The notes below the pieces were generated by a model that worked only from the letters and a program-made list of their open reading frames with translations, ran no database searches and had not been told where the DNA came from. Shown here piece after piece: positions 173-62,600 of a stretch of 64,000 nt of DNA. Where the stretch lies: IMG/VR virus record IMGVR_UViG_3300045988_184100, positions 33,784 to 97,783 of that record, one strand, 5' to 3'. Each line of letters starts with the position of its first letter. Position 1 is the stretch's first letter. The DNA is from a virus. Position numbers and translations under genes: made by a program.

Positions 173-262
173 GGTAAAACCCTGTTATTTCAGGGTGGTG
201 TATACCAAAAGGAGACGCCATGAATTGGTATACAACCCTGTTATTTCCGGGTGGTGTATACC
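173..262 (-). CRISPR. CRISPR-like mini-array, copy L: 2 repeats (distal one degenerate) and one 20-nt spacer; no cas genes
   Basis: Repeat 2 (227-262) is GGTATACAACCCTGTTATTTCCGGGTGGTGTATACC. It has an 8-bp terminal inverted stem (GGTATACA/TGTATACC) and an inner ACCC/GGGT stem. Repeat 1 (173-206) is a 34-nt degenerate version. The spacer (207-226) is AAAAGGAGACGCCATGAATT. The same repeat family with different spacers recurs at 30831-30998. Strand is inferred, not proven. Confidence 0.45.
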
Positions 263-402
263 CAGCACAGGTATTCAGTTCCCAGAAAGTGCTGGTCGCC
301 ACCTCTCACATAACAAACCAGCCAACAGAGTATTCCTGCTTCCACGACGACCATGCATCTCCACAGGCGTTAATTCCGGCTATACCGTCCGTACTCGTTT
401 TT
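263..402 (-). ncRNA. Conserved structured RNA scaffold attached to the repeat array (copy L), in the omega-RNA-like position 3' of the tnpB-like gene
   Basis: This segment is about 90% identical to 30999-31137. It contains three hairpins: CAGCAC...GTGCTG, CTGGT...ACCAG and GAGTA...TACTC. Both copies are bounded by an A/T run. In minus orientation it sits between the tnpB stop (458) and the repeats. Confidence 0.4.
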
Positions 403-2443: not shown

Positions 2444-2753
2444 ATATTGAGAGATGTTTCTGTGTCCGCTGCTCGTTAAAAAAGACGGAGGCAAAGATAG
2501 AAGCAGCGAAAACAGAAGGCGCGTCGTGCGGACTCGAACCGCCAGAACCTCCCCGCATAGAGAACAACGCGAAAGTCGAAGCAGCTCCCGCACACTTCCC
2601 TCAGGGAGCTGACTTTATTGTGCTTATGAGTGTAAATAAAGAAAGAAGAAAACGGGACGGGCAACTTAGGCGCTTATTCTTACAATCGCAAGAATATTGT
2701 CATTTTAGGTACAAGCCCTTCGAACGAGCCTTTCTTGCCCCGTCCACGCTGTT

Positions 2754-8304: not shown

Positions 8305-8520
8305 GTGAAAGTAAAAAAGAAAATTCGTTACGCCGGCGAATGCTGCATTTGCCACGAACCCATTGAGGTTGGCGAAGAATATGTCGAGGCACCTTACGAA
8401 AACAAACAGTGTCATATCGACTGCATGGAGACAGAGCCGCTTAAAGCGGTTCTGTCTTTTTTCGGCATTCCGTCGTGTGTAACCAATTCTGAAGGAAAGG
8501 AGACAAGAATCTATGGGTAG
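8305..8520 (+). CDS. Small Cys-rich (CxxC...C..C) protein, candidate antitoxin or partner of the downstream MazF-like gene
   Basis: GTG start after AAAGGAG. Its last 8 nt overlap the toxin gene start. Confidence 0.35.
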   Translation: MKVKKKIRYAGECCICHEPIEVGEEYVEAPYENKQCHIDCMETEPLKAVLSFFGIPSCVTNSEGKETRIYG

Positions 8521-9094
8521 AAATGGAAATATCCGCAGGGGCGATGTATTTTGGGTCAATGCGAAAGAAATCGAAATCTTTTCCCCTTGGGCCCCGGAAG
8601 GAAGTCAGTTCCGCGATAAAGACGGACATCCTTCCAATAGCTCTGTTATCAGAGGACATCGTCCCGCAATCGTTGTATCTTCGGATGACCTGAACCGCTA
8701 CAGCAGTGTAGTGGAGGTCGTATTTACAACATCATCTCCAAAGATGCAGCAGCCCTCCCATGTACTCATCACGAGCACGAGCCGCCCAAGCACAGCACTG
8801 TGCGAGCAGCCGATGGCAGTTTCTGTCAATGAGCTGGGGGCCTATATCTGCCACCTGACTGAAGCGGAGCTGGTAGACATCGACGCCGCGCTGTACTACA
8901 GCATGGGGCTGAGTGCTCGTGTGAACGACAATGATGATAATACATGGCGTGCGCGGTATGAAACCATGCACAGGGCATATTCCGAGATGCTTGTCCATGT
9001 TATGCGAATCATGGACAGCAACAACAAGCGGGCCACACCGTACCCCGCAGCCACCGTTGGAAGAAGAAAGGAGCAAGCCGAAAATGAGGGGTAA
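8513..9094 (+). CDS. MazF/PemK-family toxin-like protein with an insertion and a C-terminal extension (193 aa)
   Basis: RGDVFWV ... RPAIVVSSDDLN ... VVEVVFTTS matches the PemK/MazF core (RPxxVxS..N....V..TT). Confidence 0.5.
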   Translation: MGRNGNIRRGDVFWVNAKEIEIFSPWAPEGSQFRDKDGHPSNSSVIRGHRPAIVVSSDDLNRYSSVVEVVFTTSSPKMQQPSHVLITSTSRPSTALCEQPMAVSVNELGAYICHLTEAELVDIDAALYYSMGLSARVNDNDDNTWRARYETMHRAYSEMLVHVMRIMDSNNKRATPYPAATVGRRKEQAENEG

Positions 9095-30830: not shown

Positions 30831-30998
30831 GGTATAGAACCCTGTTATTTCTGGGTGATGTATACCTTGGGTCTCCTCATATATAACCACCGCCCCGGTA
30901 TATAACCCTGTTATTTCCGGGTGGTGTATACCGTATTCGGCAGGATTGTTCAAAACTGCAAAGGTATACAACCCTGTTGTTTCTGGGTGGTGTATACC
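30831..30998 (-). CRISPR. CRISPR-like mini-array, copy R: 3 repeats and 2 unique 30-nt spacers; orphan
   Basis: Repeats at 30831-30866, 30897-30932 and 30963-30998 belong to the same 36-nt family as copy L, with a few SNPs. Spacers are TTGGGTCTCCTCATATATAACCACCGCCCC and GTATTCGGCAGGATTGTTCAAAACTGCAAA. Confidence 0.45.
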
Positions 30999-31137
30999 CA
31001 GCACAGGTATTCAGTTCCCCAAAGTGCTGGTCGCCACCTCTCACGTGACTACCAACCAACAGAGTATTCCTGCTTCCACGACGACCATGCATCTCCACAG
31101 GCGTTAATTCCGGCTATACCGTCCGTACTTGTTTTTT
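30999..31137 (-). ncRNA. Conserved structured RNA scaffold (copy R), directly abutting the tRNA-Ser 3' CCA
   Basis: About 90% identical to 263-402. Substitutions are clustered in one internal segment (CACATAACAAACCAGCC versus CACGTGACTACCAACC). Confidence 0.4.
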
Positions 31138-31226
31138 TGGCGGAGAGAGTGGGAGTCGAACCCACGGATGCTTCCACATCGCCGGTTTTCAAGACCGGTG
31201 CCTTCAGCCGCTTGGCCATCTCTCCA
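31138..31226 (-). tRNA. tRNA-Ser (anticodon UGA), long variable arm, CCA encoded
   Basis: GGAGAGATGGCCAAGCGGCTGAAGGCACCGGTCTTGAAAACCGG ... GGGTTCGACTCCCACTCTCTCCGCCA. Confidence 0.85.
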
Positions 31227-33523: not shown

Positions 33524-33565
33524 AACGCTTTCCTTTCGAGTCTTTTATGTTTCTATCTTAATTCG

Positions 33566-33594
33566 ACTATAACACGAATATAAAATAATGTCAA
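33566..33594 (-). promoter_or_regulatory. Promoter (TTGACA-17-TATAGT) with the conserved TTTATATTCGTG spacer, driving the nuclease, flotillin and tRNA-Ser direction
   Basis: RC reads TTGACATTATTTTATATTCGTGTTATAGT. Confidence 0.5.
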
Positions 33595-33614
33595 GTCTGC
33601 ATGGTGCTTTTCGC

Positions 33615-41964: not shown

Positions 41965-41994
41965 AAGGGCTTATTTCTTCGATTTCATATTAGC

Positions 41995-42024
41995 ACGAAC
42001 ATAAAGTAATGTCAAGTACACGGA
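41995..42024 (-). promoter_or_regulatory. topB promoter (TTGACA-17-TAATAT) with the conserved TTTATGTTCGTG spacer
   Basis: RC reads TTGACATTACTTTATGTTCGTGCTAATAT. Confidence 0.5.
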
Positions 42025-42521
42025 GCGTAAAAAGGGTGGCTCATGTGCCAAAATCATTCAAGTCGTAAGGGAGAAAAGCAAAACGTCTAAAAACGTAAAA
42101 TTTGGTAAGAATATCTACATTTAGCACAAAAATGAGCAGAATCCTTTAACAAATGATTAAAAGATGTTACACGAAACTGTAACATCCCACAAATTAACAC
42201 AGCTTATATTAGGAATAATGTCAACACGAAAGACATGATTGTTCCAATTTTCACAAGTCGTAAACTTGACAAAATTATGTAATCGTGGTAGAGTGATATT
42301 GAATATGGAACATAAGCGCTGGCAGACGACTTTCACTGCCGCAGGAAGCACTTACTCCACTTTTGCGGCATAGAAGCAGCGGCTTGTCAGCGCTATTTCC
42401 ATGTACTCTTGCCAGCCCAATACGCGGGAGCAATATCTCGAATGGCGAACAAAACACGCCACCGTCATCGTTTTCAAAGGTAGAAAGGAAAAAGTAGCAG
42501 CGTAGAAGGAGGTCACGGGAA

Positions 42522-46105: not shown

Positions 46106-49100
46106 TTACTCGGCGCCATACTCCTTCTTGCGGCGGAACATGAACACCGCAGTGCCGCAGCAAGCAATGGCACTGAACGTACCCAGCATGGCCCACAGGC
46201 CGATGCCCTCATCGCCAGTCTGGACACTGTCGCGGAAATACACCGTCTGGGCACCGTCCATCAGGTCGTTGTGGGTAGCAATGACATTACCCGCCTCAGC
46301 ACGACCCTCATACAGAGTCTCGAATACCACGAGCGCATGGTCCTTCAGCTTGGATGCGTCGAACTTGAACGTAACATTCACAGCCCCGTTGGAGGACTTG
46401 GGCGTAAAGGTCGTGGTAGCCGTTACCAGATTCCCCTTATTGTCCTTGAGGGCAACACCGGAATCCTTATCCATCAGCGTACCAACCAGCACGTAGGTCT
46501 TGCCCACAGTCAGGCCGGTATAGTTGACGGTGTCCACGATTTTCACGTTCTTACCAGCAACGGAGTTCTTCTTCTCCTTGCCATCGAAGGTAGCGGTGGT
46601 GGAAATGCTCGGACCGGAATAGGTCGGGATGCGCTTGATGGTCACAGTCTGGTCAACATCGTTGATGTCGGCGTGAGTCGCGACCGTAGTACCATTGCGG
46701 GTCAGGGTCTCGAACACGACCAGCGTCTTACCGCCCAGAATGGATGCATCAAACACGAAACTCACATCCACAGTACCGTCAGAGGATTTGGCCTCGAACT
46801 CGGTAGTGGCGGTGATTTCCTTGTTGTTGCGGCCCAGAACAGGCTCACCTGTCGCCTTGTCCATCAGCTTACCGATTACGGTGTACTTATTGCCGGCAAT
46901 CAGGCCCTTATAGGACACGGTATCGACCAGCTCGACCTTGCTGTAGGCCCAGAATTCCTTCTTGCCATCAGCCGCGTTCTTAGCGGTGGTCTTGATTTCA
47001 GGGCTGTTGACAGTCACGGTCTGGTCAACATCGTTGATGTCGGCATGAACTGCGATTTCAATGTCCTTGTACTGCAGGGACTCGAATACAACGATAGACT
47101 GGCCACGCAGCAGAGATGCATCGAGCACGAAGAACACGTCAACGGTGCCATTGGACGCCTCAGCGGTGAAAGTAACGGAGGAGGTAATTTCCTTTCCGTC
47201 CTTATCCTTCAGTGGCTCGTTGGTAGCCTTGTTCATCAGCTTACCGGAAACAGTGTACTTCTCGCCAGCAATCAGGCCCTTATAGGACACGGTATCCTTG
47301 ATTTCAGCGCGGGCTTCGGGGTCGAGGGTCTTGCCGTTGGTGGCGTTGTTCACGGCCTTTGTACCGATTTCGGGAACGCCGATGGTGACGGTCTGCCCCT
47401 CATCGTTGATATCCTCGTGACTCACAAACACGGGTTTATTGGAGTCGCCGGGAACAATCTCGTTGCCCAGATACACACGCTCGAATACCACCAGAGACTT
47501 GCCGGCCAGCTTGGAAGCGTCAAAGACGAACTTCACATCCACCGTACCAGTGGCAGCTTCGGGAGTGAACACCTTGTAAGAGGTAACGGGGTCGCCGTTG
47601 GCATCGGTAACAGGCTTGCCGGTGGCCTTATCCATCAGCGTACCGATAGCGATGAACTCCTTACCCACGGGCATATTCTCGTAGGAGATGGTATCCACCA
47701 GAATCACATCAGCCAGAGGCATGAACTCCTTGCCTCCAACAGCGTTCTTGGCCGTGGTGCCAATCTTGGGATTCAGGATTACAACGGTCTGGTCAACATC
47801 GTTGATGTCAGCATGGGTAGCAACGACACGGTTGCCGCGCTTCAGGTCCTCGAAAACAACGATGGACTCGCCACCCAGCAGAGACGCATCAAAGGTGAAC
47901 TCCAGCTCCACAAAGCCAGTGAAGTCGGCCTCAGCCTTGAAGGTCTTAGAGGCGGTAATGCGATTACCCTCGGCGTCCAGCAGAGGCTCGCCGGTGGACT
48001 TAACCACCAGATATCCCTCGACCGTATAGGTCTTGTTGGGGATAACGTCGGTGCATTCCACCTTATCGACGATAGTGACGGTGGTGGACGGAACGATTTC
48101 CTTGTTGCCGTCCTTGTCGGTTGCAGTAGTCTTGACCTTGGGAGTCACCGCCTCGTCCTCGGCGATGATATTCACAGTCACCAGACCGGTCTCGGCATCC
48201 AGAGAAATGGTATCGGGCGTAACGCTGAAGGTAATCGGGGTATCCATCAGCTCATAACCCTTCGGGGGTACGATTTCGACCAGATGATAGTTCTCGCCGT
48301 AAGGCAGAACCAGCGGGGTCACAAAATAACCCTCATCATTGGTCTCGAATGTATCAATATAAGTTACCGTGGGGTAAGTGACCTTCTGGGACACCTTGTT
48401 CCCGTCAGGGTCGTAAATCTGGAACTTCGCGCCGCCCCAAGGAATGACCTCGCCGTCAAGCTCATCGACCTTCACAACGCGCAGGTACGCGGTAATAGGT
48501 CCGTTGTTGACAGCCAAGTCGTGATGGTCGTGGTCAACCTCGCCAACCAGAACGGTGAACTCAGGCGCGAGCCCCGCACCCTTATCGCCGGCCTTGGTCT
48601 GATGCACCACATAGGTGCCGTAGGGCAGCTCGATAGACTTGCCGCTGTAACCCAAGTCGTTGGTCGTCAGGATACCGCGCTCGTCATCCTTAGCGTCCTC
48701 GTAAGAGCCGGCGGACTGCAGCCAATACTTGAACTCTGCACCGCCCTCGAACTTAGCGGGACCGGAGGTTCCGTCGGAGATGAACTTGGTGATGGCGAAT
48801 GTGCCGCGATTGATGACCTCGACAGAGGTAATCTGGGGAGCAACGTTGTGTTCGATACGGTAGTTCTCCGGCTCGGCGCCAACGTGATACACGCCCTCAT
48901 CAATCTGATAGCCAGTGGGCGCCTTGATTTCACGGATGGTGTAATCATAGCCGCAGATGTACTCGTCAGTGGTAAACTTGCCGTCGCTGCCGATAACGTA
49001 CTCCTTCACCAGCTCGTCACCCTTATAGAGACCGTACACAGCACCCTCAAAGACACCATCGCCGCGAGGGATGTTGCCAGTCTCGGCGTCCGTCTTCTCC

Positions 49101-51856
49101 ACAGTGACCTTCCACTTCTTCAGTACGTTGGTCACAGCGGTGTCGGTAACTTTCTGGAACTCCACAACGAGACCTGTCTGCACGGCAGGAATAACATACT
49201 TCACCGCCGTATCGACTTCCTCCAGCGTGTAGTTGTTGCCAATCAGGACATCCTTGAAGATGGCAATACCGTCAGCGTTGGTGGTAGCAGTCAGGTCAAC
49301 AGCATCGCCGGAGATGGCAGTTCCATGCAGCCGGAAGGTAATGCCCTCGACCATGCCGTCCTCAGAGGTCTTGGTAACGCGCAGGTCGCCGCGCTTGAGC
49401 TTGTTGTAGACATTCACGGGGGTGGTGTTATCCAGAGTAACCTTCACGCCGTTTGTCACAGCGGGAACGATATACTTGGCAGCCGTGTTCACTTCCTCAA
49501 CGCTGTAGTTGTTGCCAATCAGAACGTTGTTGAAGGTGGCAACTCCGGCGTCATTGGTCACGGCGGTCATATCCACCGTCTCGCCGTTGATAGCAGTACC
49601 GGACAGACGGAACGTGATACCAGCGGCCTTGCCGTCCTCGGAGGTCTTCTTAACCTCAACGGCGCCGCGAGCCAGCTTATTATGGAAGTTCAAGCTGGTG
49701 GTGTTGTTGAGCGTGACGGTCACATTGCTCTGGACAGCGGGAACAACGTACCGCTCGGCGGTGTTGATTTCCTGTACGGTATAGTTATTACCGATAAGGA
49801 TTTCTCTGAACATGACGACACCGTTCTCGTCGGTAGAAGCAGTTTCATTGACTGCTGCACCGGAGATAGACGTACCGGTCAGCCGGAAGGTCATGCCTGC
49901 CACGAAGCCATCCTCGGAGGTCTTCGTGATTTTCAGATTGCCGCGAGCCAGCTTGTTCTCAAACTGAGCGGGGGTGCTGGTGTTGTACTCAACCACCACG
50001 CCAGCCTGCACCGCAGGAACAACATACTTCGCTGCGGTGTTGATTTCCTCCAGCTTATAGTTGTTGCCCACAGGAACATTATTGAAGGTAGCCACGCCGT
50101 TGGCATCCGTAACAGCCGTCATGTTGACAGCCGTACCTGCTGCGGAAGTGCCGGACAGACGGAAGGTGTGACCAGCAATCTGACCATCCTCTGAGGTCTT
50201 AGTCACCTTTACGGCGCCCTTCTTCAGCACGTTGCTGAAGTTCACCGTCTTAAAATCGCCGATTGCGATGTTTACGGACTGGGGCTGCGTCGGGATGTAG
50301 TTGTCAGGTGTATTCTCCGTTACGGTATAAGTACCGGGCTGCAAATCGGTAATGGCAATCTTACCGTTTGCACCAGTGGTCACAGTCTTGCTGTAACCGT
50401 TGGGGCCCGTGACCGTGAAACTCACGCCGCCTACTTTGCCATCCTCGGAGGTCTTGGCAATGTTCAAATCACCGGTGGTTTTCGTGACCTTGGCGCGGAC
50501 GTAGGCAGTAACGGGGTCGGGTCGCCCGTTCAGCGCAACACAATTCTGCTTGCCTCCACCCGCGACGAGGAGATAAGCATTGATGCTGTCGGGGTCAATC
50601 GCATTTCCCTCGGAAGGGCGAGATACAATCCCGTTCAACATACTCTTCGCAGCTTCCGGAGTGGCTGTAATTGTCAGATTGTTTCCACTTTGGAAGGTGC
50701 TCACACCAGACAGACTGAACTCAAAGTCTTCAAAATTTCTCAAGACTCTGTTTGTATCTGTTCTTGTAGCCGTCCACGAAGTACCATCCCACGTGAGTTC
50801 GATATCCTTCGATGTGTTGTATGGATATGCAACAGCAAAGCTGGGGATGGTGCTCTGCTGGTTAATCTTTTCCCAGATATAATCATGTGCTGCCTTAATA
50901 GGTTCTGCAACAGAGGCGTCATAGGAATGGCCGGGACCCACAAACAGGTCACTCAAGTCACTGTAGCCGCCAACAATTTCCCAGATAACCTCTTGTGTGG
51001 CACACCACGCATAAGTGCCGTTGCCGGCATACCAAAGCAACGTCGAGTCGTCTACCCCACCGTAGCCATAGGCAAGTGCGAGGCGGACTCGGTTGTTCTC
51101 CCAATAACTGCTGGCATCAACGGAGGTTCCGGAGCCGGGGGCATTCTTATGAGGCTCAATACAGTAAGCAGGCTGGCCGTTGAAGTATTTCACAACGGCA
51201 CTGGAGTAGGGGGCAAACTCGGCCATCCACTTGCTGTTATAACTCATGTCATCACCGGTCGTAATGGTTCCGGAGGAACGAGCGGGGGCTCTCATTGCAC
51301 TGATAGCTCTGGGTGCGTTCTGCGCTGACCCATAAAGGACGGAAACGCTCACAGGAGTTTCCTCTCCAGCATAAGGGTCACGAAGTCCATCCTCTGCCGA
51401 GGGGTCTTCTCCTGCCTCCTTACTCTCTTCCTTTTTCGCCTCTGCGGGCTCTCCATTCTTTACCTCGTCAGAAGAGGATGATGTCTCCGCCTTGTCAGGC
51501 TTTTCAGACATATCGGGCTTCTGCTCCGCTTCTGTCCCCACATTGGTCTTTGCGTCTCCCGCAACATCCTTGGCATCAGCTTTGCCGCCATTTTCCGTTG
51601 AAGGCGTTTCCGCATCGCCAACGCTGTTGCCAGTACCCGCAACATCGGTGCCCTTGTCGTCCGCCGATTCGCCAGTGGGCAGCGCATCGGCATCCTCGGC
51701 GCTTGGCGTATCTGCCGTCTGCTCGACAACTGTACTGACGACGGAAGTGTTGCCTTCACCCGCATCGTCGGCATACACAGAGGTCGGAAGCATTCCGACC
51801 ACCATCACCAGTGTCAACAGCATTGCAACAACGCCACGCATCTTCTTGTGTTTCAT
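46106..51856 (-). CDS. Giant sortase-anchored surface adhesin (1916 aa): signal peptide, acidic region, adhesive N-domain, SpaA/CnaB-like domains, about 9 Thr-Gln ester-bond Ig-like stalk repeats, C-terminal sorting signal
   Basis: MKHKKMRGVVAMLLTLVMVVGML signal. Repeated KTSEDG...ATTDANGVATF modules. Repeated H-x-D-x-x-D-x-x-Q-T-V motifs (for example ATHADINDVDQTVT). C-terminal VQTGDEG, hydrophobic segment, RRKKEY. Confidence 0.75.
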   Translation of the reverse strand: MKHKKMRGVVAMLLTLVMVVGMLPTSVYADDAGEGNTSVVSTVVEQTADTPSAEDADALPTGESADDKGTDVAGTGNSVGDAETPSTENGGKADAKDVAGDAKTNVGTEAEQKPDMSEKPDKAETSSSSDEVKNGEPAEAKKEESKEAGEDPSAEDGLRDPYAGEETPVSVSVLYGSAQNAPRAISAMRAPARSSGTITTGDDMSYNSKWMAEFAPYSSAVVKYFNGQPAYCIEPHKNAPGSGTSVDASSYWENNRVRLALAYGYGGVDDSTLLWYAGNGTYAWCATQEVIWEIVGGYSDLSDLFVGPGHSYDASVAEPIKAAHDYIWEKINQQSTIPSFAVAYPYNTSKDIELTWDGTSWTATRTDTNRVLRNFEDFEFSLSGVSTFQSGNNLTITATPEAAKSMLNGIVSRPSEGNAIDPDSINAYLLVAGGGKQNCVALNGRPDPVTAYVRAKVTKTTGDLNIAKTSEDGKVGGVSFTVTGPNGYSKTVTTGANGKIAITDLQPGTYTVTENTPDNYIPTQPQSVNIAIGDFKTVNFSNVLKKGAVKVTKTSEDGQIAGHTFRLSGTSAAGTAVNMTAVTDANGVATFNNVPVGNNYKLEEINTAAKYVVPAVQAGVVVEYNTSTPAQFENKLARGNLKITKTSEDGFVAGMTFRLTGTSISGAAVNETASTDENGVVMFREILIGNNYTVQEINTAERYVVPAVQSNVTVTLNNTTSLNFHNKLARGAVEVKKTSEDGKAAGITFRLSGTAINGETVDMTAVTNDAGVATFNNVLIGNNYSVEEVNTAAKYIVPAVTNGVKVTLDNTTPVNVYNKLKRGDLRVTKTSEDGMVEGITFRLHGTAISGDAVDLTATTNADGIAIFKDVLIGNNYTLEEVDTAVKYVIPAVQTGLVVEFQKVTDTAVTNVLKKWKVTVEKTDAETGNIPRGDGVFEGAVYGLYKGDELVKEYVIGSDGKFTTDEYICGYDYTIREIKAPTGYQIDEGVYHVGAEPENYRIEHNVAPQITSVEVINRGTFAITKFISDGTSGPAKFEGGAEFKYWLQSAGSYEDAKDDERGILTTNDLGYSGKSIELPYGTYVVHQTKAGDKGAGLAPEFTVLVGEVDHDHHDLAVNNGPITAYLRVVKVDELDGEVIPWGGAKFQIYDPDGNKVSQKVTYPTVTYIDTFETNDEGYFVTPLVLPYGENYHLVEIVPPKGYELMDTPITFSVTPDTISLDAETGLVTVNIIAEDEAVTPKVKTTATDKDGNKEIVPSTTVTIVDKVECTDVIPNKTYTVEGYLVVKSTGEPLLDAEGNRITASKTFKAEADFTGFVELEFTFDASLLGGESIVVFEDLKRGNRVVATHADINDVDQTVVILNPKIGTTAKNAVGGKEFMPLADVILVDTISYENMPVGKEFIAIGTLMDKATGKPVTDANGDPVTSYKVFTPEAATGTVDVKFVFDASKLAGKSLVVFERVYLGNEIVPGDSNKPVFVSHEDINDEGQTVTIGVPEIGTKAVNNATNGKTLDPEARAEIKDTVSYKGLIAGEKYTVSGKLMNKATNEPLKDKDGKEITSSVTFTAEASNGTVDVFFVLDASLLRGQSIVVFESLQYKDIEIAVHADINDVDQTVTVNSPEIKTTAKNAADGKKEFWAYSKVELVDTVSYKGLIAGNKYTVIGKLMDKATGEPVLGRNNKEITATTEFEAKSSDGTVDVSFVFDASILGGKTLVVFETLTRNGTTVATHADINDVDQTVTIKRIPTYSGPSISTTATFDGKEKKNSVAGKNVKIVDTVNYTGLTVGKTYVLVGTLMDKDSGVALKDNKGNLVTATTTFTPKSSNGAVNVTFKFDASKLKDHALVVFETLYEGRAEAGNVIATHNDLMDGAQTVYFRDSVQTGDEGIGLWAMLGTFSAIACCGTAVFMFRRKKEYGAE
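50489..50700. repeat. Near-identical DNA tract shared by the two adhesin paralogs (matches 63710-63920), consistent with recent gene conversion
   Basis: A 66-nt perfect identity (ACCTTGGCGCGGACGTAGGCAGTAACGGGGTCGGGTCGCCCGTTCAGCGCAACACAATTCTGCTT) is followed by about 140 nt with only scattered mismatches. Confidence 0.6.
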
Positions 51857-53324: not shown

Positions 53325-53412
53325 TTCAAAATTTGCTCAGGGAATGTAATTAAATAATAGACCGTGACGAGGTTTAAGCTGTGGAAAACTTGACATTATT
53401 TTTGATGTGCTT

Positions 53413-53441
53413 ACAATAGCACGATTATAAAAAAATGTCAA
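53413..53441 (-). promoter_or_regulatory. Promoter (TTGACA-17-TATTGT) with the conserved spacer family
   Basis: RC reads TTGACATTTTTTTATAATCGTGCTATTGT. Confidence 0.4.
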
Positions 53442-53577
53442 GTGTGGTTTTTGGAAAATTTTTCGTTTTCTCATCTTAAACCACAAAGCCTTGTGCCTCG
53501 CAAAGACGGAAACCCCTTATATTGCAACGGTTTTGCACGCTTCCCTTCCTTCTGTTTTCAATCAAATAATTTTTTCA

Positions 53578-53632: not shown

Positions 53633-56600
53633 TTACTTATTTTTCTTTCTTCTCTTGACGTTGCTCACTACAACGACAATAATTGCAGTTCCCAAGGCAA
53701 TCGAGCCCAAAGAGACATACTTGCCGACGCCAGCGTCTCCAGTCTTGGGAGATGCGGTAACAGTCACAGTCTGTCCAGCATCATTGATGTCAGTATGGCT
53801 CAGGTACGGAGTCCCGTCCACACTTCCTCCGACATATAACTCCTCAAACACGACAATCTTCGCACCCTTGATGTTCGACGCAGCGAAGGAGAATTTCATG
53901 TCGATGGAGCCATCGGAGGCCTTCGGGGTAAATGTCAGCTTGGAGGTTACTTCCCTGCCGCCCGCATCGCGCAGAGCTTCCCCCGTCTGAGCATCCATCA
54001 ACCTGCCAACCAAGGTGTAATTCTGACCAACAGCCAACCCAGAATAACTCACGGTATCTACGACCACAAGGCGAGAGGCATAACCGCTGGACTTTGAGCC
54101 ATTGGCAAATGTCGCCGTAGTTCCCATGGTAGGACCGCTATAATGGATGCGGTCAACAGTAACCGTTTGTTTCTCGTCCATTATGTCAGCGTGAGTAGCG
54201 ACACTCATGTTGTTGTAGAGGAGCTCCTCGTACACAACGAGAGTTTTCCCCGCAACGGAACGAGCACCAAACACAAAGGAAACCGTCGTTGTTCCTTCGG
54301 CCTTTTCAGGCGTAAAGGTCGCAGTAGCGGTCAAGGGCTTTTTGTCCTTGTCCGTGATGGGTTTACCTTCGACCCAATTCCCAACAAATTTAACCTTTTC
54401 TACCAGAGTCCCGACCAAGGTGTACTCGTGACCGGGGATAAGTCCCTCATAGGTCACAGTGTCTACCAGCTCGGCTTTCTCATACGGAGAGAACGTCTTC
54501 TTCCCCGTAGAAGCATTGGCAGCAGAGGTCTTGATAGCAGGATTCGCAAAGGAAACGGTCTGTGCGGTGTCTTCCAAGTCCTCGTGAGTTGCCAAAGCCG
54601 TTTCATCTCCCTCGTTGTAATAGAGATACTCAAATACAACAATATCCTTGCCAGCGAGCGAACTCCCATCGAACTCAAACAAGACTTCAACAGAACCGAA
54701 GAGGTTGTCAGGAGTAAAGAATGTGGATGCAACAACAGAGTTGCCGTCCTTATCCTTCAAGGATTCTCCAGTAGATTTATCCATCAGCTTACCAACAAGT
54801 GTATACTTGTGAGCAGTTGAGAGATGGTCGTATTTTACAGAATCAGTCAAAACGACCTTCTCTGTGGGGTCAACCAGCTTTTCCCCATCGACTTTGTTTG
54901 TTGCGATGGTTTCAACAATGACGGGATTCTTAATCTCGACAGACTGGTTTTCGTCGTTGATATCACGGTGAGCGGCGACGACAGTCTCTCCGTAGTACAA
55001 GTCCTCAAAAACGACCAGAGTGCGCCCAAAGAAATCGCGTGCATCGAATTTGAACTCGACTACCACAGAACCGTTCTCGCCCTCAGGCGTGAACACTTTT
55101 TCAGCGGTGATAGACTTCCCTGATGCGACCTCCACCGGTTTGCCCGTGGACTTATCCATCAGGGTGCCAACGACCTTGTACGTATGTCCAGCAATGATGC
55201 CTTCGTAGTCCACAGTATCCTTCAGGATAACCTCGCTGGCGGGCTCAAACACCTTCGTGCCGTCAGCAGCATTTTCAGCGCAGGTCTTGATGGAAGATTT
55301 TACCACGGTCACAGTCTGGTCAGCATCCTCAATATCCTTGTGCGCCGCCACAGGTGCCTCGTCACCAGCAGTAAAGAACAGTTCCTCGAACACCACGATA
55401 TCGCGTCCCTTCGCGGCAGAAGCGTCGAAAGCGATAGCCGCAACAGCCGAGCCAGCAGTGCTTTCAGGCGTGAACTGCATCTCCGAAACGACGGGTTTGC
55501 CGTTATTCAGAACAGGCTCGCCAGTAGTTTTATCAACCAAGCTGCTTCTCAGTGTGTAGGCGTGTCCAGTAGACAGGTGACGATATACCACAGTATCATT
55601 GATGGTAGAAGTTTCAGAGGCATCAATGAACTTTCCTCCATCCACTGCGCTCAAAGCAACAGTCCGTACGATTTCAGGGTTGTGAACCGTAGTAGTCTGC
55701 TCCTCATCATTGATATCCTCATGGGACGCAATGACAGTTCCGTTGAAGAGTAGCTTCTCGAACGCCACGATGGTTTTGCCATACAACTCAGTTGCAGCGA
55801 AGGGGAATTCAACATCCACCGTGCCGCAGGGAGCATCAGGAGTAAACTCCACAGAAGAAGCCACGATACTTCCCGCAGTATCCTTGATGGGCTTGCCGGT
55901 TCCCTTATCCATCAGAGTTCCGGTCACGGTGTATCTATGTCCCACAATGAGATTGTTGTAAAACACGGTATCCTTCAGCGTAACCGTCTGGTCCGGTTCA
56001 AAGACCTTGCCATTATCTTCTTTGTTCACGGCAACAGTCCTTACTTCAGGGCTTGTTACAGAAACGGTCTGTTTTCCATCGTCGATATCCCTATGGACGG
56101 CGACCGGTTCAGTATCTTCGGAGTTGAAATAAATTTCCTCAAACACAACAATGTCTTTGCCCTTCAAGAAGGAAGCAGTGAAAACAAACTGCATATCCGC
56201 AGAACCGCTCGCCTCCACAGGCGTAAAGGACTGTTCAGACACAACCTCTGTGCCGCCATTTTTGATAGGCTCGCCCGTTTCCTTGTTCATTAACGTACCG
56301 CGTAAGGTGTATTCGTGGCCAGCAGACAGATGTTCATACGTAACAGTGTCGGTGATTTTCACATTGTCTGCGGGGTCAATCAGCTTACCGCCTCCAAGAG
56401 TTCCAACCGCCGTTGTGCCAGTGATGTTAGGCGCATAAACCGTCACCGTCTGTTCCCTGTCGTTGATATTTTCGTGAGAAGCAATCTCAGTGTCATTACA
56501 GAAAATCTTCTCGAAAACAACAATGTCTTTCCCGTACAACTCTGTGGCCGCAAAGGTAAACTCAACATCAACACTTCCGCCAGCAGCCTTCGCCTTAAAG

Positions 56601-59600
56601 GTCTTTTCAGCGGTAATCGTCTCGCCACTTTCATCGACCACAGGATTGCCAGTTGCCTTATCCATCAGCGTCCCGGAAACCTTATAAGTGTGACCCTCAA
56701 TCAGTCCAGAGAAAGAAACTGTATCGAGGATTGTAACTCTCTTATCCGGCTCAAGCATCTTACTTCCATCGACCTTATTGGAGGCAACAGTCTTCACCTT
56801 AGGATTGGAAACAGTAACAGTCTGGCCGACATCTCCAAGGTCCTTATGTGCTGCCGCAGCAATCGTTTGATTTTCGTAAAACAACTCCTCGAAAACAACA
56901 ATTTTCTTCCCCTGCAGCCCAGATGCATCGAAGACGAATTCCATGTCGATAGAGCCTTCCGCTTTCTTCGCTGTGAAGGATTTTTCAACTACAATAGGTT
57001 TATTGTTTAGCAAAACGGGTTCTCCGGAGGACTGGAAAACAAGTGTTCCACGCAACTTGAAATCGTGTTTTATAGGTAGATGTGCATACTTTACAGTATC
57101 CTTGATAACCACATTTCTGGCTGCATCAATGTACTTGCTGCCGCCCTCACCGTTCACGGCGGTCGTATTGGTCAGTTCAGGATTATAGAATGTTGCCGAC
57201 TGGTCAACATCGTTAATGTCCTCATGCTTGGCAATAATGTGACCGCCGTAGGAAACGGTTTCAAAGGCTACGACCGTTTTACCGAACAGCTCAGAAGAGT
57301 CGAATGTAAAATAGACATCCACAGACCCATCCATGGACTTGGGAACGAATACTGTTCTCCCTGAAATCTCGCCATTTCCGCCAACAAGAACACGTCCAGT
57401 AGCTTTGTCCATCAAGTGCCCCTCGGCGACATAGGTGTGACCGGGGATGAGGTTGTGATAAGTAACGGTATCTACCAAAACCGTAGACAGAGAAGAAACA
57501 AAGAACTGGTTCTTATCAGGACTTGCCTTCATGGTAGTTCCGATGCTCGGCTCCATTACCGTAACGGTTTGAGCTTCGTCACGAAGGTCTTTGTGTGTCG
57601 CACAAGGAGCAGCGTCCGTTTCGTTAAAGAACAGTTCCTCAAACACAACTACATTTTTACCAGCAAGGAGAGATGCATCCAATGCGAAAGTCACGTCCAC
57701 ATCACCAGACGTACGCTTCGGAGTGAATTTCACCCGTGTTGCAGTGCCGGGAATTTCCTCACCAGTTCCTCCATTCATCAATCGCCCCACTAAGGTGTAC
57801 TCGTGACCGGGAGTTACATGGGAATAGGAAACGGTGTCTGTTATAGAGGTTTCCTTCGCCGCATCAAGCATCTTACCCTTGCCATCCGTATTCACAGCCC
57901 TTGTCGAGATGCTGGGAACATTGATTGTTACGGTCTGACTTCTGTCGTCAAGGTCCCTATGCTCCGCAATTACCGTTCCGTTAAACACGAGTTCCTCAAA
58001 CACAACCAGAGATTTTCCGTAGAGCTGCGAAGCGTCAAAAACAAACTCCACCTTAACCTTGCCGGCAGCACTGCGAGCTATAAATGATGTTGTTCCGGTA
58101 ACGGGGTTGCCATCCGTATTCAGAACCGGCGTACCGGTCTTTTTATCCATCAGGACACCATTTACCGTGTACTCATGTCCCTTGCACAGACCCTCATAAC
58201 TCACGGTATCTACCAGTCTGACAGCGCTCTTAGGGTCAAAGAACTTGGAGTTATCTTCCGCATTCTTCGCACTGGTCTTAATAGCTGGTGTGCTGAAGGT
58301 CAGGCTCTGTTTCAGGTCGGAAATGTCCGTATGCGTCCCTGCGGGAATTTCATCGCCCTCGTTGAAGTACAGATACTCAAAAACAACGAGCGTCTTCCCT
58401 GCCATATTGCTGGCGTCAAATGTAAACTCGACGTTGACCGCCCCCGCGACCCGCTGCGGCGTGAATACGGTTTTGCCGGCAATCTCGTCACCCTTCGCAT
58501 CCAGCAAAGGAAGCCCTGTCATTTTATCCATCAGCTTACCTACAACGGTATATTCATGGTCAGGGGTTAAGTGGCGATAATAAACAGTGTCCACAATATG
58601 CGTTCCCTTGGCAGGGTCAATCAGGTTTGTATCGCCGTCATTATTCAGAGCCTTTGTACTCAGCGCAGGAGCGAAGAACACAGCCTCCTGTTTCTCGTCA
58701 GCGAGGTCTTTGTGCTCGGCAATAACTGTGTTGTGGTAATACAGGGACTCGAAGGCAATGACACTCTGACCATACAGGATAGAGGCGTTTAGCGTGAATT
58801 TAACATCAACATTTCCATCCTTGGTCGTCGGAACGAAGTCTGCCTCACCGGACACCAAATTTCCATTACCGTCGCGGATAACATCGCCGGTGTCTTTGGA
58901 AACGAGATTGCCCTTCACCTTGTACCTGTGACCGGGTACGAGGTCTGTATAGGTCACAGTATCCGTAATGGTAATTTCATTCAGCGGCTCGAAATAGTTA
59001 TTCAGAGAGATGCTCTCATTGATGGTCGTGTGAATTGTAGGAGCGTTCACGACAACTGTCTGCCCTTCATCGCCGATATCCTTATGGATGGCACAAGGTG
59101 TGCTGTCAGATGCACGGAAATACAGCTCTTCGTACACAACAAGGGAATCTCCATCAAGACCAGAAGCATCAAATGTAAAGACCATTTCGGTGCTGCCCTT
59201 AGACGCAGACGGCGTAAATGTGTTCGTCACCGTTACAGTGCGTCCACCAGAAACAACAGCCTCACCTGTTCGCTTATTCATCACTGTACCGATGATAGTG
59301 TACTCCTGCCCTATGGTAAGATGTTCGTAAGCAATCGTATCCTTAATGACAACATTTTTCGCAGGGTCAATAAACTTACCCGTACCCTCACCATCAATAG
59401 CGGTAGTGCCAATCTTCGGGCTGTAGACATTCACGGTCTGCTCGGCATCTGCTTCATCTTCGTGGACGGTAAGGACAACACCCCTGTAAGACAGTTTTTC
59501 AAACACGACCAGAGTATGTCCATACAGTTCCGAAGCATCAAAAACGAACTCGACATCCACAGTACCGGCCTTCGCCGTGGGCGTAAATCTTGTTGTGCCG

Positions 59601-62600
59601 GTAATTTCATTTCCGGCAGCATCCTTCACAAACTCGCCTGTCGTTTTATCAAACACCTTTCCGGTCAACAGATAGGTGTGCCCCTCAACGACCTTTTCAT
59701 ACGCAACAGAGTCCCTGACCTTCACCATGTACTGCGGGTCAAGGAATTTAGTTCCGTCTTCGGCGTTGGTTGCATGAGTGGTAATCTCAGGCGCCTCGAC
59801 TGTTACGGTCTGTTCCGCGTCCTCAATGTCCTCGTGCGTTGCAACGGGGATATCGCTGCTGATGGCAACATGATAGAGTTTCTCGAACGCGACAAGCTGC
59901 ACACCCGCAATCTCAGTTGCATCGAAGGTGAAGGTAACATCTACCGAGCCTTCCGTTGTCGCCGGAGTAAAGGTTGTCGTTCCGACAATGTATGTTCCGT
60001 TATCGTCCTTTGCCGGCTGCTGCGTGTCCCTATCCATCATCTGCCCCTTCAAAACGTACTTATGTCCGGGAGTGAGATGCTTATAGGACACCGTATCCAC
60101 GATAGATACGCCGATGGAGGGGTCAACAACCTTCACATTTCCATCAGGGTTGACGGCGGAAGTTTTAATTTCGGGTGCGAAGAAGGATACGGTCTGGTCC
60201 GCGTCCGAAATGCTCTTGTGGGTTGCCACCTCTACACCGTCACGATGCAGCGTATCATATACAACTACAGCATCTCCAGCAATAAGAGAAGCATCGAATG
60301 TAAAGGACAGCACGGTGGACCCCTCAAAGTTGTTGCCGCCAACAAAGGTATTCGTAGCAGTTATCCTGTGACCGGCGCCATCCAGAAGAGGCTCGCCAGT
60401 AGACTTCAAAACCAGATAACCATTCACCGTATAGGTTTTGCCGGGAATGACATCGGTACAGGACACCGTATCCTTAATTGTCACAGATGTCAGGGGTTCC
60501 ATGGTTTTCTCCCCCGCCTCGCCCTTAGCTACAGTCTTGATTTGAGGCGTTACAGGCACATCTGTCATCTTCACGACAACGACCTTTTCCCCGTCATTCA
60601 TGGTTGTACTTTCAAAATCAACATTGAATATAACGGGAGTGGAGTTCAAGCGATAGCCACGAGGAGCTTTGGTTTCCACCAGCTTATAGCCGCGACCAAA
60701 AGGAAGTTCTTCGGGGGTTATCAAATTTCCGTCATTATCCGTCCTAAATGTATCAATGTTTTTAGCCCCAGCCTTGAGGGACACAAGAGTTCCATCTGGG
60801 TCGTATATCTGGAACTCAGCTCCGCTGTAAGGAACTTGAACATTGTCCATTGCGTCCTGTTTTACCACTCGAACAGAAGCATAATAAGGACGGTCATTAA
60901 GCACATAGAAATAAGTTTTCCCATTCTCGGAAATAGTCACCTCAAAGCCAAAAAGCATATCTGCGTGTTCAAAATGCTTTGTCTGCTCGATAACATATGT
61001 GCCGTAAGGCAGCGCCTTGGTTGTCGCATACCCGTCCTCGTCCACAACAATGTGGTCTCTATCGGTGGTCTTCGCAGCAGCGTAGCTTCCTGCCGCCTTC
61101 AGGTAGACATCGAACTCAGCGCCAACTTCGGGTGTGACCTTTCCGGTCGGGAGGGATTCCTCGACGCCGGTAGGACCGACATCCGAGTGCTTGAAAATCT
61201 TAATGTAGCCCTTGATGACCTTTTCTGTTACGCCCAAATCGGGGGCTGCATTGATTTCGATGACGTAGTTCTTCGCCTCAGCGCCTACTTGATATACACT
61301 GTCATCCAGCAGATAGCCGACGGACGGAACAATTTCCTTGATGGTCCAATTATCGCCGCAAACATAGACGTCCGTAGCAAACTTTCCATTCGCATCAGTG
61401 GTGTACTGTTTCACCAGTTCGTCGCCATTATACAGGCCATAAACGGCGCCCTGCAAGGTGGCGTTGCCCTGCGCTGTCGTCGTCTCGATATCGCGCTTTG
61501 TAACGGTCACAGACCACTTCTTCAGCACATTATGAACAGAAACAGTTGTGGTCTTGTCCAGCTTTACATTGATGCCGCCCTTTACTGCAGGAATGACATA
61601 CCGTGCAGCGGTGTCAACTTCCTCCAGCGCGTAGTTGTAACCCACAAGAACATTATTGAAGGTTGCAATACCGGAAGCATTCGTCACAGCCATCATGTCT
61701 ACGCGCTGACCCTGTGCAGAAGTACCTGTCAGGTGGAACTTGATGCCCTCAACGATACCGTCTTCAGAGGTCTTGGTCACACTCACTGTACCGCGAGCCA
61801 ACTTATTATGCACATTGGCGTTCGTAGTTTTATTCAGCGTTACATTTATGCCAGAAACGACATCCGGTACGATATACTTTTCGGCGGTGCCAACTTCCCG
61901 AACGGAATAGTTCTCGCCAATCAGGACGTCAGAGAAGGTTGCCACGCCTTTGGCGTTGGTGGTCGCGGTCATATCCACCGCGTCACCATTACCTGCCGTG
62001 CCGGTCAATCGGAACTTGATGCCGGAAACCAGCCCGTCCTCAGCAGTCTTCGTAACAGTAACCGTTCCGCGAGCCAGCTTGTTGTAAACCGAAGCCTCCG
62101 TGGTTTTCCCCACAGTGATTGTAATACCGTTCTGCACCGCAGGGACAACATAGCGGGCAGCCGTATCAACCTCCGTTAGAACGTAGCTGTTGCCCACCAG
62201 CACATTCTTGAACTCAGCAATGCCCACTGCATTGGTAGTCGCATCCAGAGACACCGCAGCTCCAGATGTAGAGGTGCCTTCCAGATGGAACTTCACGCCG
62301 GACACGAATCCGTCTTCAGACGTCTTGGTAACGCGAAGACTTCCACGCGCAAGGTCATTGTGGAAGGACAGCTTCGTAGTGTCGTTGACCCTCACGGTAA
62401 CGCCATCCTGCACATCCGGAACAACGTAGCGGGTAGGGGTGCTGGACTCCTGTACTGTGTACCTTGTCCCAATGGGCACATTGGAGAAGGTCGCAACGCC
62501 CTGAGCGTCCGTCTTTGCCGTCATGCTGACGGTCGTCCCCGCGTCAGAAGTACCTGTCAGCGTAAATGAAAGATTGCTCACAACGCCGTCTTCGGATGTC

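Follow-up and report, generated by a model that had tools for sequence, protein, structure and literature searches.

A TnpB homologue with an altered catalytic site and omega-RNA scaffolds fused to CRISPR-like arrays in a large human-gut mobile element

The 64,000-nucleotide stretch of IMG/VR record IMGVR_UViG_3300045988_184100 analysed here (the window) is part of a large human-gut mobile element, related contigs of which reach ~134–190 kb. Near one end it carries the gene of a 352-amino-acid homologue of TnpB, referred to as dTnpB, followed on the same strand by an omega-RNA-like scaffold that runs directly into a CRISPR-like repeat-spacer array (unit 1); a second such unit (unit 2) lies ~30 kb away. 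The scaffold is homologous to omega-RNAs and structured in its minus-strand reading, the arrays are fused to it, their spacers turn over between strains and match foreign elements, and the putatively inactivated protein is under strong purifying selection. We consider it probable, though well short of certain, that the element encodes a minimal TnpB-derived RNA-guided DNA-binding system, composed of dTnpB and 3–7 dispersed scaffold-array RNA genes and directed against competitors. Most likely it serves in conflicts between mobile elements, as an interference system that binds DNA in the manner of TldR or type V, and it looks halfway between transposon guide RNAs and type V CRISPR.

Scaffold-array units and their relation to omega-RNAs

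Read on the minus strand, positions 171–402 of the window contain a 135-nt structured scaffold, a 36-nt repeat, a 20-nt spacer and a degenerate terminal repeat, in this order (Table 1). An initial annotation of the window had described two repeat copies around a 20-nt spacer, contiguous with a conserved segment, and had placed them, on the minus strand, after the stop codon of a tnpB-family gene and a perfect hairpin. These features were all found again at their positions, and the interpretation given to them, an omega-RNA-like scaffold with repeat-spacer units in the guide position, is supported. Two details were revised: the distal repeat, called truncated, has its full 36 nt, of which the 9 most remote from the scaffold are degenerate, and the scaffold, credited with three hairpins, forms four in the consensus fold (~135 nt), together with a closing helix, one of the hairpins having a GUGAGAG loop. 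Repeat 1 folds into an outer stem of 8 bp and an inner stem of 3–4 bp, and allowing up to three mismatches the repeat pattern has four matches in the window, compared with none in 100 shuffles.

The recurrence of scaffold and repeat with other spacers ~30 kb away, also part of the initial annotation, was reproduced: unit 2 has three repeats and two spacers of 30 nt, and its scaffold is 94–98% identical to that of unit 1 (repeat families D14, D15, D17). It directly follows a tRNA-Ser gene, the same tRNA-Ser and scaffold arrangement being present at the collected loci L014, L028 and L040. At these three loci a diverged, repeat-less scaffold copy, preceded by a GTGTGCAATGATTGCACAC hairpin, is located past the array of the tRNA-Ser unit (L014 4268–4416; L028 and L040 ~380–480) and may be a relic of a further unit. 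A short scaffold relic is also seen directly before the dTnpB start codon in the lineages with 87% identity (L104 1401–1506; L101–L107, L111 and L119 at ~1401–1465).

To determine the distribution of the units, we scanned IMG/VR, human-gut metagenome contigs and 185,579 species-representative GTDB genomes for exact matches to the repeat core. The scan gave 32 loci in IMG/VR (on contigs of 31–172 kb) and 44 more in human-gut metagenomes (contigs up to 134 kb), and a single, chance-like match in the 185,579 species-representative genomes. Statistics on arrays and self-matches rest on 706 kb of collected element sequence, in which we counted 145 arrays, each with 1–9 repeats, at some 80 viral and human-gut metagenome loci. 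The scaffold 3' motif directly precedes 129 of the 139 evaluable arrays, the exceptions being parsing fragments, locus edges and chance matches. The sampled parts of each element contain 3–7 distinct scaffold-array units and one dTnpB gene, and most units are not adjacent to any tnpB gene; two further diverged units just left of the window follow non-tnpB genes (L005). All dTnpB genes of the 99–100% and 87–88% identity lineages have a scaffold and repeats ~60 nt downstream. A REP/BIME-type palindrome or an insertion sequence (IS) end, the alternatives raised with the initial annotation, are ruled out as an explanation of the 36-nt unit: the repeat never occurs free of a scaffold, and the copies are always separated by unique spacers. 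Rfam scans assigned the scaffold to no known RNA family, as only the tRNAs reach the gathering score and a permissive scan of positions 100–520 yielded noise only.

A covariance model built from 17 scaffolds (R1), a check proposed in the initial annotation, was searched against 58 loci holding TnpB relatives and returned 46 matches, all on the gene strand. About 40 of them start within ~30 nt past the stop codon of TnpB relatives with 36–53% identity (E values from 1e-5 to 0.1). Although weak, the matches fall at one position and on one strand and are therefore not chance; because they sit just past the stop codons of ~40 TnpB relatives, the scaffold is an omega-RNA homologue, which bears out its original designation as omega-RNA-like. 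A sequence-only nhmmer profile did not detect the omega-RNAs of active relatives, whereas the covariance model did. R1 also matches at the loci of a second nuclease-dead TnpB clade (P0022/P0026) with E = 1e-8. The 36-nt repeat is absent from all active TnpB relatives examined.

One active relative occurs within the element itself. Some strains carry an active-looking TnpB of 372 amino acids, 51% identical to dTnpB, with GIDVGL, two CxxC motifs and HDRDINAA. Its gene sits in an insertion-like element of ~1.37 kb (L003 2373–3751), the empty site of which corresponds to window positions 2542–2549; the site GGTTCTGG flanks the insertion on both sides, giving it boundaries like those of an insertion element. 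The region 3' of this gene shares with the scaffold TACGG…GCCGnAAnTTACGCCTGTGGAGA, GAAGCAGGAAT and the hairpin with the GTGAGAG loop and, judged by these common segments, the active TnpB has an omega-RNA homologous to the scaffold that accompanies dTnpB in this element.

The strand of the scaffold was assessed from its conserved helices. RNAalifold gave a consensus energy of –44.0 kcal/mol for the sense (minus-strand) reading and –16.4 kcal/mol for the complement. Standard pairs occupy 98.2% of the cells in the predicted helices in sense and 73.6% for these helices on the complementary strand, counts that apply to a structure predicted from the same alignment as was scored. G·U pairs, which become A·C mismatches on the complement, account for 237 of 939 cells; one-sided changes in the helices nearly always keep pairing through G·U, and the GUGAGAG-loop hairpin, this one helix only, shows compensatory changes at three pairs. 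The fold energy, the pair and G·U counts, the omega-RNA homology and the polarity of spacer acquisition described below all indicate that the functional strand of the scaffold is the minus strand. The omega-RNA of the ancestral type ends with …GAAUAUCC at the transposon boundary, the scaffold keeps …GAAUACC and every repeat ends with …GUAUACC; all three are complementary to an invariant GGUAUA at scaffold nucleotides 10–15. The candidate pseudoknot between GGUAUA and either UAUACC of the repeat or AAUACC of the scaffold is paired in 99–100% of the cells, with changes only to G·U and no compensatory change. It would mirror type V tracrRNAs and omega-RNAs, which pair pseudoknot-wise with the nucleotides just 5' of the guide.

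A functional RNA could instead be made from the plus strand, with the array followed by antisense scaffold and a terminator, and act as an antisense or decoy RNA. On that strand there is a promoter-like site at 138–165 (10 of 12 matches), and the hairpin just beyond the scaffold is a good intrinsic terminator. We regard a plus-strand product as very improbable, given the weak antisense fold and the quarter of conserved pairs that turn from G·U into mismatches; moreover, promoter-like sites occur there at chance level (2 found, 1.3 expected), the hairpin is present in both orientations at other loci, and the omega-RNA homology and acquisition polarity point to the minus strand.

A putatively inactivated TnpB homologue under selection

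Pfam assigns HTH_OrfB_IS605 and OrfB_IS605 to dTnpB and detects the TNB zinc-finger domain only over its first 24 positions. In the alignment with active relatives (A1), which have G(I/L)D(V/M)GL at RuvC-I, dTnpB reads GISLGL, with Asp replaced by Ser, and an in-frame deletion of ~28 amino acids removes the CxxC…CxxC zinc finger. The RuvC-II Glu is retained, and the tail KHDEALAQVVLSEG (RuvC-III-like, KHDEALAQVVL) still aligns with the RuvC-III helix DRDENAAKNILTEG. In work on TldRs, mutation of any one D-E-D triad residue abolishes cleavage, and many TldRs are without the zinc-finger/RuvC part at the C terminus (Wiegand et al., 10.1101/2023.11.30.569447; 10.64898/2026.09.22.753285); since triad mutations have this effect, dTnpB is predicted to be nuclease-dead. 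The three nearest database clusters (99, 87 and 79% identity) share the form of 348–352 amino acids, the next relatives, at ~50% identity, being ordinary TnpBs of 370 amino acids with a zinc finger. The alignment thus shows the putatively inactivating changes at the catalytic site to be conserved along with the protein.

Over the full 352 codons, comparison with the 87% lineage gave a ratio of nonsynonymous to synonymous substitution rates (dN/dS) of 0.07 at dS ~1.15, which implies that dTnpB is a selected protein and not a decaying pseudogene. A tnpB pseudogene is ruled out by this ratio together with the conserved in-frame deletion, and the linkage of dTnpB, scaffold and array is kept across dS >1. 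The AlphaFold2 model of dTnpB (pLDDT 85.6, pTM 0.77) has its best PDB match in ISDra2 TnpB (8EXA, TM-score 0.82, E = 7e-27), followed by ISFba1 TnpB, LaTranC (TM-score 0.67) and Cas12f. By sequence, ISDra2 TnpB is also the closest natural protein with a solved structure (E = 1e-49, residues 6–322), whereas LaTranC is distant (E = 3e-12, in the RuvC part). dTnpB is present once per element at a fixed locus, and no TnpA accompanies it. In a chimeric dTnpB sub-lineage (L104–L107) the next open reading frame (ORF; 2761 onward in L104) begins MDMVYVLNKDGKPLMATTRGG…GIDPGRTNIG and resembles an IscB/IsrB-type N-terminus.

These data bear on the proposal that the locus is non-functional debris, made of decayed IS605-family right ends and a recombination-spread palindrome beside a tnpB pseudogene. 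An ORF devoid of its zinc finger, the repeat-less scaffold relics and the decay of distal repeats and spacers are what debris would look like. The dN/dS of 0.07, a zinc-finger deletion that is clean, in frame and conserved, the compensatory and G·U-preserving changes in the scaffolds, and the uniform 30-nt spacers with polarised gain and foreign protospacers (see below) largely refute it already, leaving debris a highly improbable explanation, the least probable that we considered.

The P0022/P0026 clade offers a point of comparison. Its nuclease-dead TnpBs have 320–321 amino acids and are truncated at the C terminus, and their loci consist of a single short scaffold, a short flank or guide and a terminator, with no repeats (L037 1364–1474; L038 2386–2499), an arrangement that is classical TldR-like.

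Spacer turnover and foreign targets

Among 94 unique spacers, 67 are exactly 30 nt long and 6 have 31 nt; near-identical 36-nt repeats alternating with unique spacers of near-constant length are the generic hallmark of a CRISPR array. At the dTnpB-adjacent locus, near-identical strains differ in their spacers and some have none: in the spacer-free strains the unit consists of the scaffold, one repeat, a fixed 19-nt flank and a terminator. L036 holds two spacers (cttcgct… and cgtgagg…), and L022 has both of them plus two more, located toward the scaffold. L024 and L018 differ likewise, by extra spacers proximal to the scaffold, and have distal spacers and degenerate repeats in common. Comparison of near-identical strains thus shows that spacer gain is polarised toward the scaffold end, which is the polarity expected if CRISPR adaptation took place next to a leader and the scaffold stood in for that leader. 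The terminal repeat is the most degenerate of an array. Decay gradients of repeats and spacers hint that only the first spacer may be used, although they are confounded by repeat sub-families. The CRISPR-like reading of the initial annotation is therefore borne out by the modal spacer length, the polarised acquisition and the foreign protospacers.

Short spacers of 20, 24 and 25 nt are 5'-truncated forms of 30-nt spacers found in other strains. The 20-nt spacer of unit 1 is probably a 5'-truncated 30-mer as well, because four other short spacers are demonstrably shortened 30-nt spacers. A 30-nt spacer of the diverged 87% lineage (L102) overlaps with it on the opposite strand, and the two jointly reconstruct the target AAAAGGAGACGCCATGAATTCCGTTTTACTCGACCG, the ribosome-binding site and ATG of a gene; the overlap on opposite strands implies a common foreign source for both. 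In two further pairs the spacers overlap on opposite strands or are offset by 2 nt, indicating that foreign sites were captured more than once, independently and from either strand, in keeping with DNA rather than RNA targeting.

Searches with different spacers against phage and plasmid collections, as the initial annotation had recommended, gave matches in INPHARED and none in PLSDB plasmids. Three spacers from three strains match the human-gut element MT835962.1 at 694–724 (31/31), 1747–1776 (29/30) and 1898–1927 (29/30), and a fourth matches it weakly at 1331–1350 (23/30). All four protospacers are in tyrosine-integrase and Xis-like genes, the three strong ones within 1.3 kb, and one covers the ribosome-binding site and start codon of Xis. 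Another spacer matches a serine-recombinase gene in MT839899.1 (29/30). MT835962.1 is unrelated to the spacer-bearing element. Apart from the arrays themselves, five spacer-derived patterns searched in IMG/VR had a single, partial match (22/30, in L039), and no relatives of the targeted integrase, sought to enlarge the sample of target-adjacent motifs (TAMs), were present in IMG/VR. Immediately 5' of the protospacer, on the repeat-proximal side (–1), the base is G in 7 of 9 cases, and G also precedes all four truncated derivatives; the insertion site of the active relative likewise ends with …CTGG. These cases are suggestive of a 5' TAM, although G is also common at +1 (5 of 8). MT835962.1 (L085) itself contains at 2059–2147, on the minus strand, a short-form scaffold (R1 E = 5e-10) followed by an 11-nt stretch and a terminator hairpin, just upstream of the xis-int module and with no TnpB-like gene in the first 5 kb.

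A regulator of the TldR type, which would control element or host genes in the way of the fliC-, oppF- and csrA-associated TldRs, would account for the TldR hallmarks of dTnpB, for the related dead clade with its single scaffold, short guide, terminator and no repeats, for the similar dTnpB unit with a fixed flank in spacer-free strains, and for the two inferred targets that cover a ribosome-binding site and a start codon. No spacer has a match in the 706 kb of element sequence, host chromosomes having been outside the search for most spacers, and on this ground self-targeting or regulatory guides in the element were rejected. The existing matches fall in unrelated integrative elements and spacers differ between near-identical strains, which is unexpected for a fixed regulatory guide. 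We judge a regulatory role to be improbable.

The annotated absence of cas1/cas2 adaptation genes was upheld: five Pfam batches covering 50 ORFs from the window and from array neighbourhoods, in elements that are partly sampled, detected neither these nor other Cas families. This might suggest that the units are mini-arrays that hijack a host Cas effector and Cas1-Cas2, with the scaffold as leader and dTnpB as an unrelated neighbour. No cas gene was found in the element, yet acquisition is polarised and spacers have a uniform 30 nt, as is typical of Cas1-Cas2; most units are not adjacent to dTnpB, and virus-borne mini-arrays directed against competitors are well known (PMC11656645). The identity of the repeat with that of host arrays, which would define such a hijacker, was not observed: the species genomes gave only the single chance-like match and the metagenomes only scaffold-fused mini-arrays of 1–9 repeats with no long host array, and a host-derived mini-array was rejected accordingly. 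Furthermore, the supposed leader is structured RNA, its conserved helices are rich in G·U, and its homologues are the omega-RNAs of dTnpB's own clade; the dTnpB-scaffold-array linkage has also persisted across dS >1. Hijacking of a host system is thus unlikely, if slightly less so than a regulatory role.

Genomic context, proposed mechanism and related systems

Promoter-like motifs and tRNA genes precede both units of the window (Table 1). The conserved motif, TTGACA, 17 nt including TG, and TAnnnT, reads as a strong promoter and has four minus-strand copies (2752–2799, 33564–33611, 41985–42032 and 53411–53458), one of them upstream of the topoisomerase gene. Five tRNA genes (Gly-UCC, Thr-UGU, Thr-CGU, Glu-CUC and Ser-UGA), all on the minus strand, are located at 1903–2443 and 31138–31225, in two groups directly upstream of scaffold units. 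Because the promoter motif is upstream with tRNA genes in between, formation of the RNA 5' end by co-transcription and tRNA processing is plausible. In the window, the hairpin that separates the dTnpB stop codon from the scaffold is an apparent intrinsic terminator only when read on the plus strand; in the 87% lineage, and behind some arrays, this hairpin has its T-tail in the sense direction, and it occurs in both orientations elsewhere.

Table 1. Coordinates and strands of the features in the window
Feature	Position	Strand	Details
Terminator-like hairpin and T-run	137–151	–	19 nt past the terminal repeat, sense direction
Terminal repeat, unit 1	171–206	–	Degenerate in its last 9 nt, sense orientation
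Spacer, unit 1, 20 nt	207–226	–	AAAAGGAGACGCCATGAATT on the plus strand; RNA sense AATTCATGGCGTCTCCTTTT
Repeat 1, 36-nt hairpin	227–262	–	GGTATACAACCCTGTTATTTCCGGGTGGTGTATACC as read on the plus strand; abuts the scaffold
Omega-RNA-like scaffold (conserved segment), unit 1	263–402	–	R1 match at 263–395, 145.9 bits
Perfect 8-bp hairpin between dTnpB stop codon and scaffold	417–435	unassigned	GTGTGCAATGATTGCACAC
Stop codon of the tnpB-family ORF	458–460	–	
dTnpB, 352 amino acids, predicted nuclease-dead TnpB homologue	458–1516	–	Pfam, alignment, AlphaFold2 model
Promoter-like site TTGACA-17-TG-TAGTAT	2754–2782	–	Upstream of tRNA cluster, dTnpB and unit 1 (family D16)
Unit 2, whole	30831–31136	–	Three repeats at 66-nt spacing, two 30-nt spacers, scaffold
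Array, unit 2	30831–30998	–	Repeats at 30963–30998, 30897–30932 and 30831–30866
Spacers, unit 2, 30 nt each	30933–30962 and 30867–30896	–	
Omega-RNA-like scaffold, unit 2	30999–31136	–	R1 155.5 bits; no tnpB gene nearby
tRNA-Ser(UGA)	31138–31225	–	3' end ~8 nt before the conserved scaffold sequence of unit 2
Promoter-like site TTGACA-17-TG-TATAGT	33566–33594	–	Upstream of nuclease gene, flotillin gene, tRNA-Ser and unit 2

The element is listed as viral in IMG/VR, but its gene content looks at least as much like that of a conjugative element. It encodes a RecG-like helicase, a TopB-type topoisomerase, a VWA protein, MazF, flotillin, a non-specific nuclease and YopX, and further a sortase, SHIRT-repeat adhesins, a DNA methylase, a TraI_2-like protein and a serine recombinase, besides the tRNAs. 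The MazF/PemK-family toxin gene is at 8513–9094 (Pfam E = 4e-16). Two giant minus-strand ORFs, at 46106–51856 (1916 amino acids) and 53633–63967 (3444 amino acids), are built of many diverged tandem units of ~276 and ~375 nt (repeat families D1–D12); the SHIRT domains of a related element protein and the sortase-like gene nearby suggest that they are cell-wall-anchored adhesins.

In the RNA-guided DNA-binding system that we favour, each RNA gene consists of a complete omega-RNA scaffold (~135 nt) joined in cis to a short array of 36-nt repeats and 30-nt spacers. These genes share the strand of dTnpB and would be co-transcribed with genes or tRNAs that precede them. dTnpB would bind the scaffold-repeat RNA, and the spacer past the repeat 3' end (…UAUACC) would serve as guide, as does the flank past the omega-RNA 3' end in TnpB. 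The complex would recognise double-stranded DNA next to a 5' TAM, probably ending with G, and would block transcription or replication of competitors, at their integrase and excision modules and at other genes, without cutting, as do Cas12m, Cas12c and TldR. New spacers may be inserted in trans by a candidate integrase of the host or of an unsampled part of the element. Guide loading could take two forms. If only the spacer after the scaffold-fused repeat is used, this would explain why there are several complete units per element; alternatively, the scaffold may also act in trans on the downstream repeat-spacer units.

A related but distinctly less probable reading, which we hold tentatively and slightly above hijacking, supposes that spacers are already integrated CRISPR-style into an omega-RNA with its scaffold still joined to the array. 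Loading would be limited to the spacer of the fused repeat, which would account for the retention of 3–7 complete units in place of a single long array. Insertion would need no Cas1-Cas2 of its own and would be done by an integrase borrowed from the host or by an element enzyme of unrecognised type, making a 352-amino-acid, naturally multiplexed, adaptive system similar to CRISPR interference.

Several observations weigh against an RNA-guided DNA-binding system of the favoured type. The chimeric dTnpB sub-lineage has no downstream array. dTnpB keeps the RuvC-II Glu and a RuvC-III-like Asp, and the loss of nuclease activity is deduced from one catalytic substitution and the loss of the zinc finger. 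With loading in cis only, spacers beyond the first would be unusable, and use of all of them would require a scaffold working in trans like a tracrRNA. No cas1/cas2 that could account for the spacer turnover were found in the sampled parts. Only ~6 of ~100 spacers have database matches, so that the putative TAM rests on few cases, and G is frequent at +1 as well. No promoter lies immediately upstream of the scaffolds, and several units follow a terminator, so that their transcription would require read-through or processing. Finally, the plus-strand promoter-like site and terminator around unit 1 would bracket an antisense transcript.

Among known systems, TldRs are similar in that they are not transposon-borne, have a guide-RNA scaffold just downstream on the same strand, are in some cases carried by prophages and, like dTnpB, presumably bind DNA without cutting. 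They differ in using one fixed guide of 9–16 nt against a host or neighbouring promoter, whereas here variable 30-nt spacers are directed against foreign elements and the scaffold-array unit is present 3–7 times per element. A fixed short promoter-complementary guide next to a TAM, a TldR trait, was not found, with no match within the element and host genomes outside the search. The word 'array' does not occur in the 2026 TldR paper (10.64898/2026.09.22.753285). Canonical IS200/IS605 TnpB (ISDra2, PDB 8H1J and 8EXA) is the best structural and sequence match, with a scaffold at the gene 3' end on the same strand and the guide expected 3' of the scaffold. In contrast to it, the present system has no TnpA, no transposon ends and one gene copy, its catalytic Asp is replaced and its zinc finger deleted, and a repeat-spacer array takes the guide position in place of a single flank-derived guide.

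The dead-effector variants of type V (V-M/Cas12m, V-C, V-O, V-P, Cas12b3; V-U groups) likewise combine a TnpB-derived effector with a downstream array and no cas1/cas2; they are enriched on plasmids and prophages and interfere by binding or by blocking transcription between elements (PMC10691335; PMC12669027). The dTnpB locus shows the type V layout of a TnpB-derived single effector with an array downstream. It differs in that dTnpB has 352 amino acids, no REC expansion or zinc finger and 51% identity to an active TnpB, that the first repeat of every array is joined in cis to a full omega-RNA scaffold, and that the arrays are dispersed rather than at one locus. TranCs, as reported, are TnpB-like proteins with CRISPR arrays that illustrate how omega-RNA gave way to tracrRNA plus crRNA (Jin et al., Cell 2025, 188:6283; cited in PMC13565253), and are described as DNA endonucleases (10.1101/2025.09.28.678669); according to a review, their guide is split into tracrRNA and crRNA, and a single right-end RNA is described as guiding them too, whereas dTnpB is predicted to be catalytically inactivated, the scaffold is unsplit from the array, and LaTranC is only distantly related. 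Virus-borne mini-arrays and type IV-A3 plasmid systems, the latter acquiring spacers in trans, are also short element-borne arrays against competitors without adaptation genes (PMC11656645; 10.1101/2023.06.23.546257). Mini-arrays, however, copy the repeat of their host, and our scans turned up no host array that carries the present one; type IV systems have multi-subunit class 1 effectors and not a TnpB derivative.

The system would work like a dead type V or TldR system, but it fails defining features of each of the named families OMEGA, TldR, TranC and hijacker mini-array. Close conceptual relatives are already published in TldR, TranC and the dead type V effectors on plasmids, and the system is not a new category, because Altae-Tran et al. 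(2023) anticipated that arrays originate independently from omega-RNA segments, and likewise anticipated inactivated TnpBs and 'omega-RNA arrays' (PMC10691335). If confirmed, it would be a natural example of the step from a transposon guide RNA to a CRISPR array, with the full omega-RNA scaffold still attached and an effector that is still of TnpB size and 51% identical to an active TnpB. It would make testable how arrays without cas1/cas2 gain spacers, and the predicted programmable DNA binder of 352 amino acids, with its native array format, would be of interest to tool builders. For the biology of gut mobile elements, it would add a player at the TnpB level to their RNA-guided warfare, the targets so far being the integrase, excisionase and recombinase genes of competitors.

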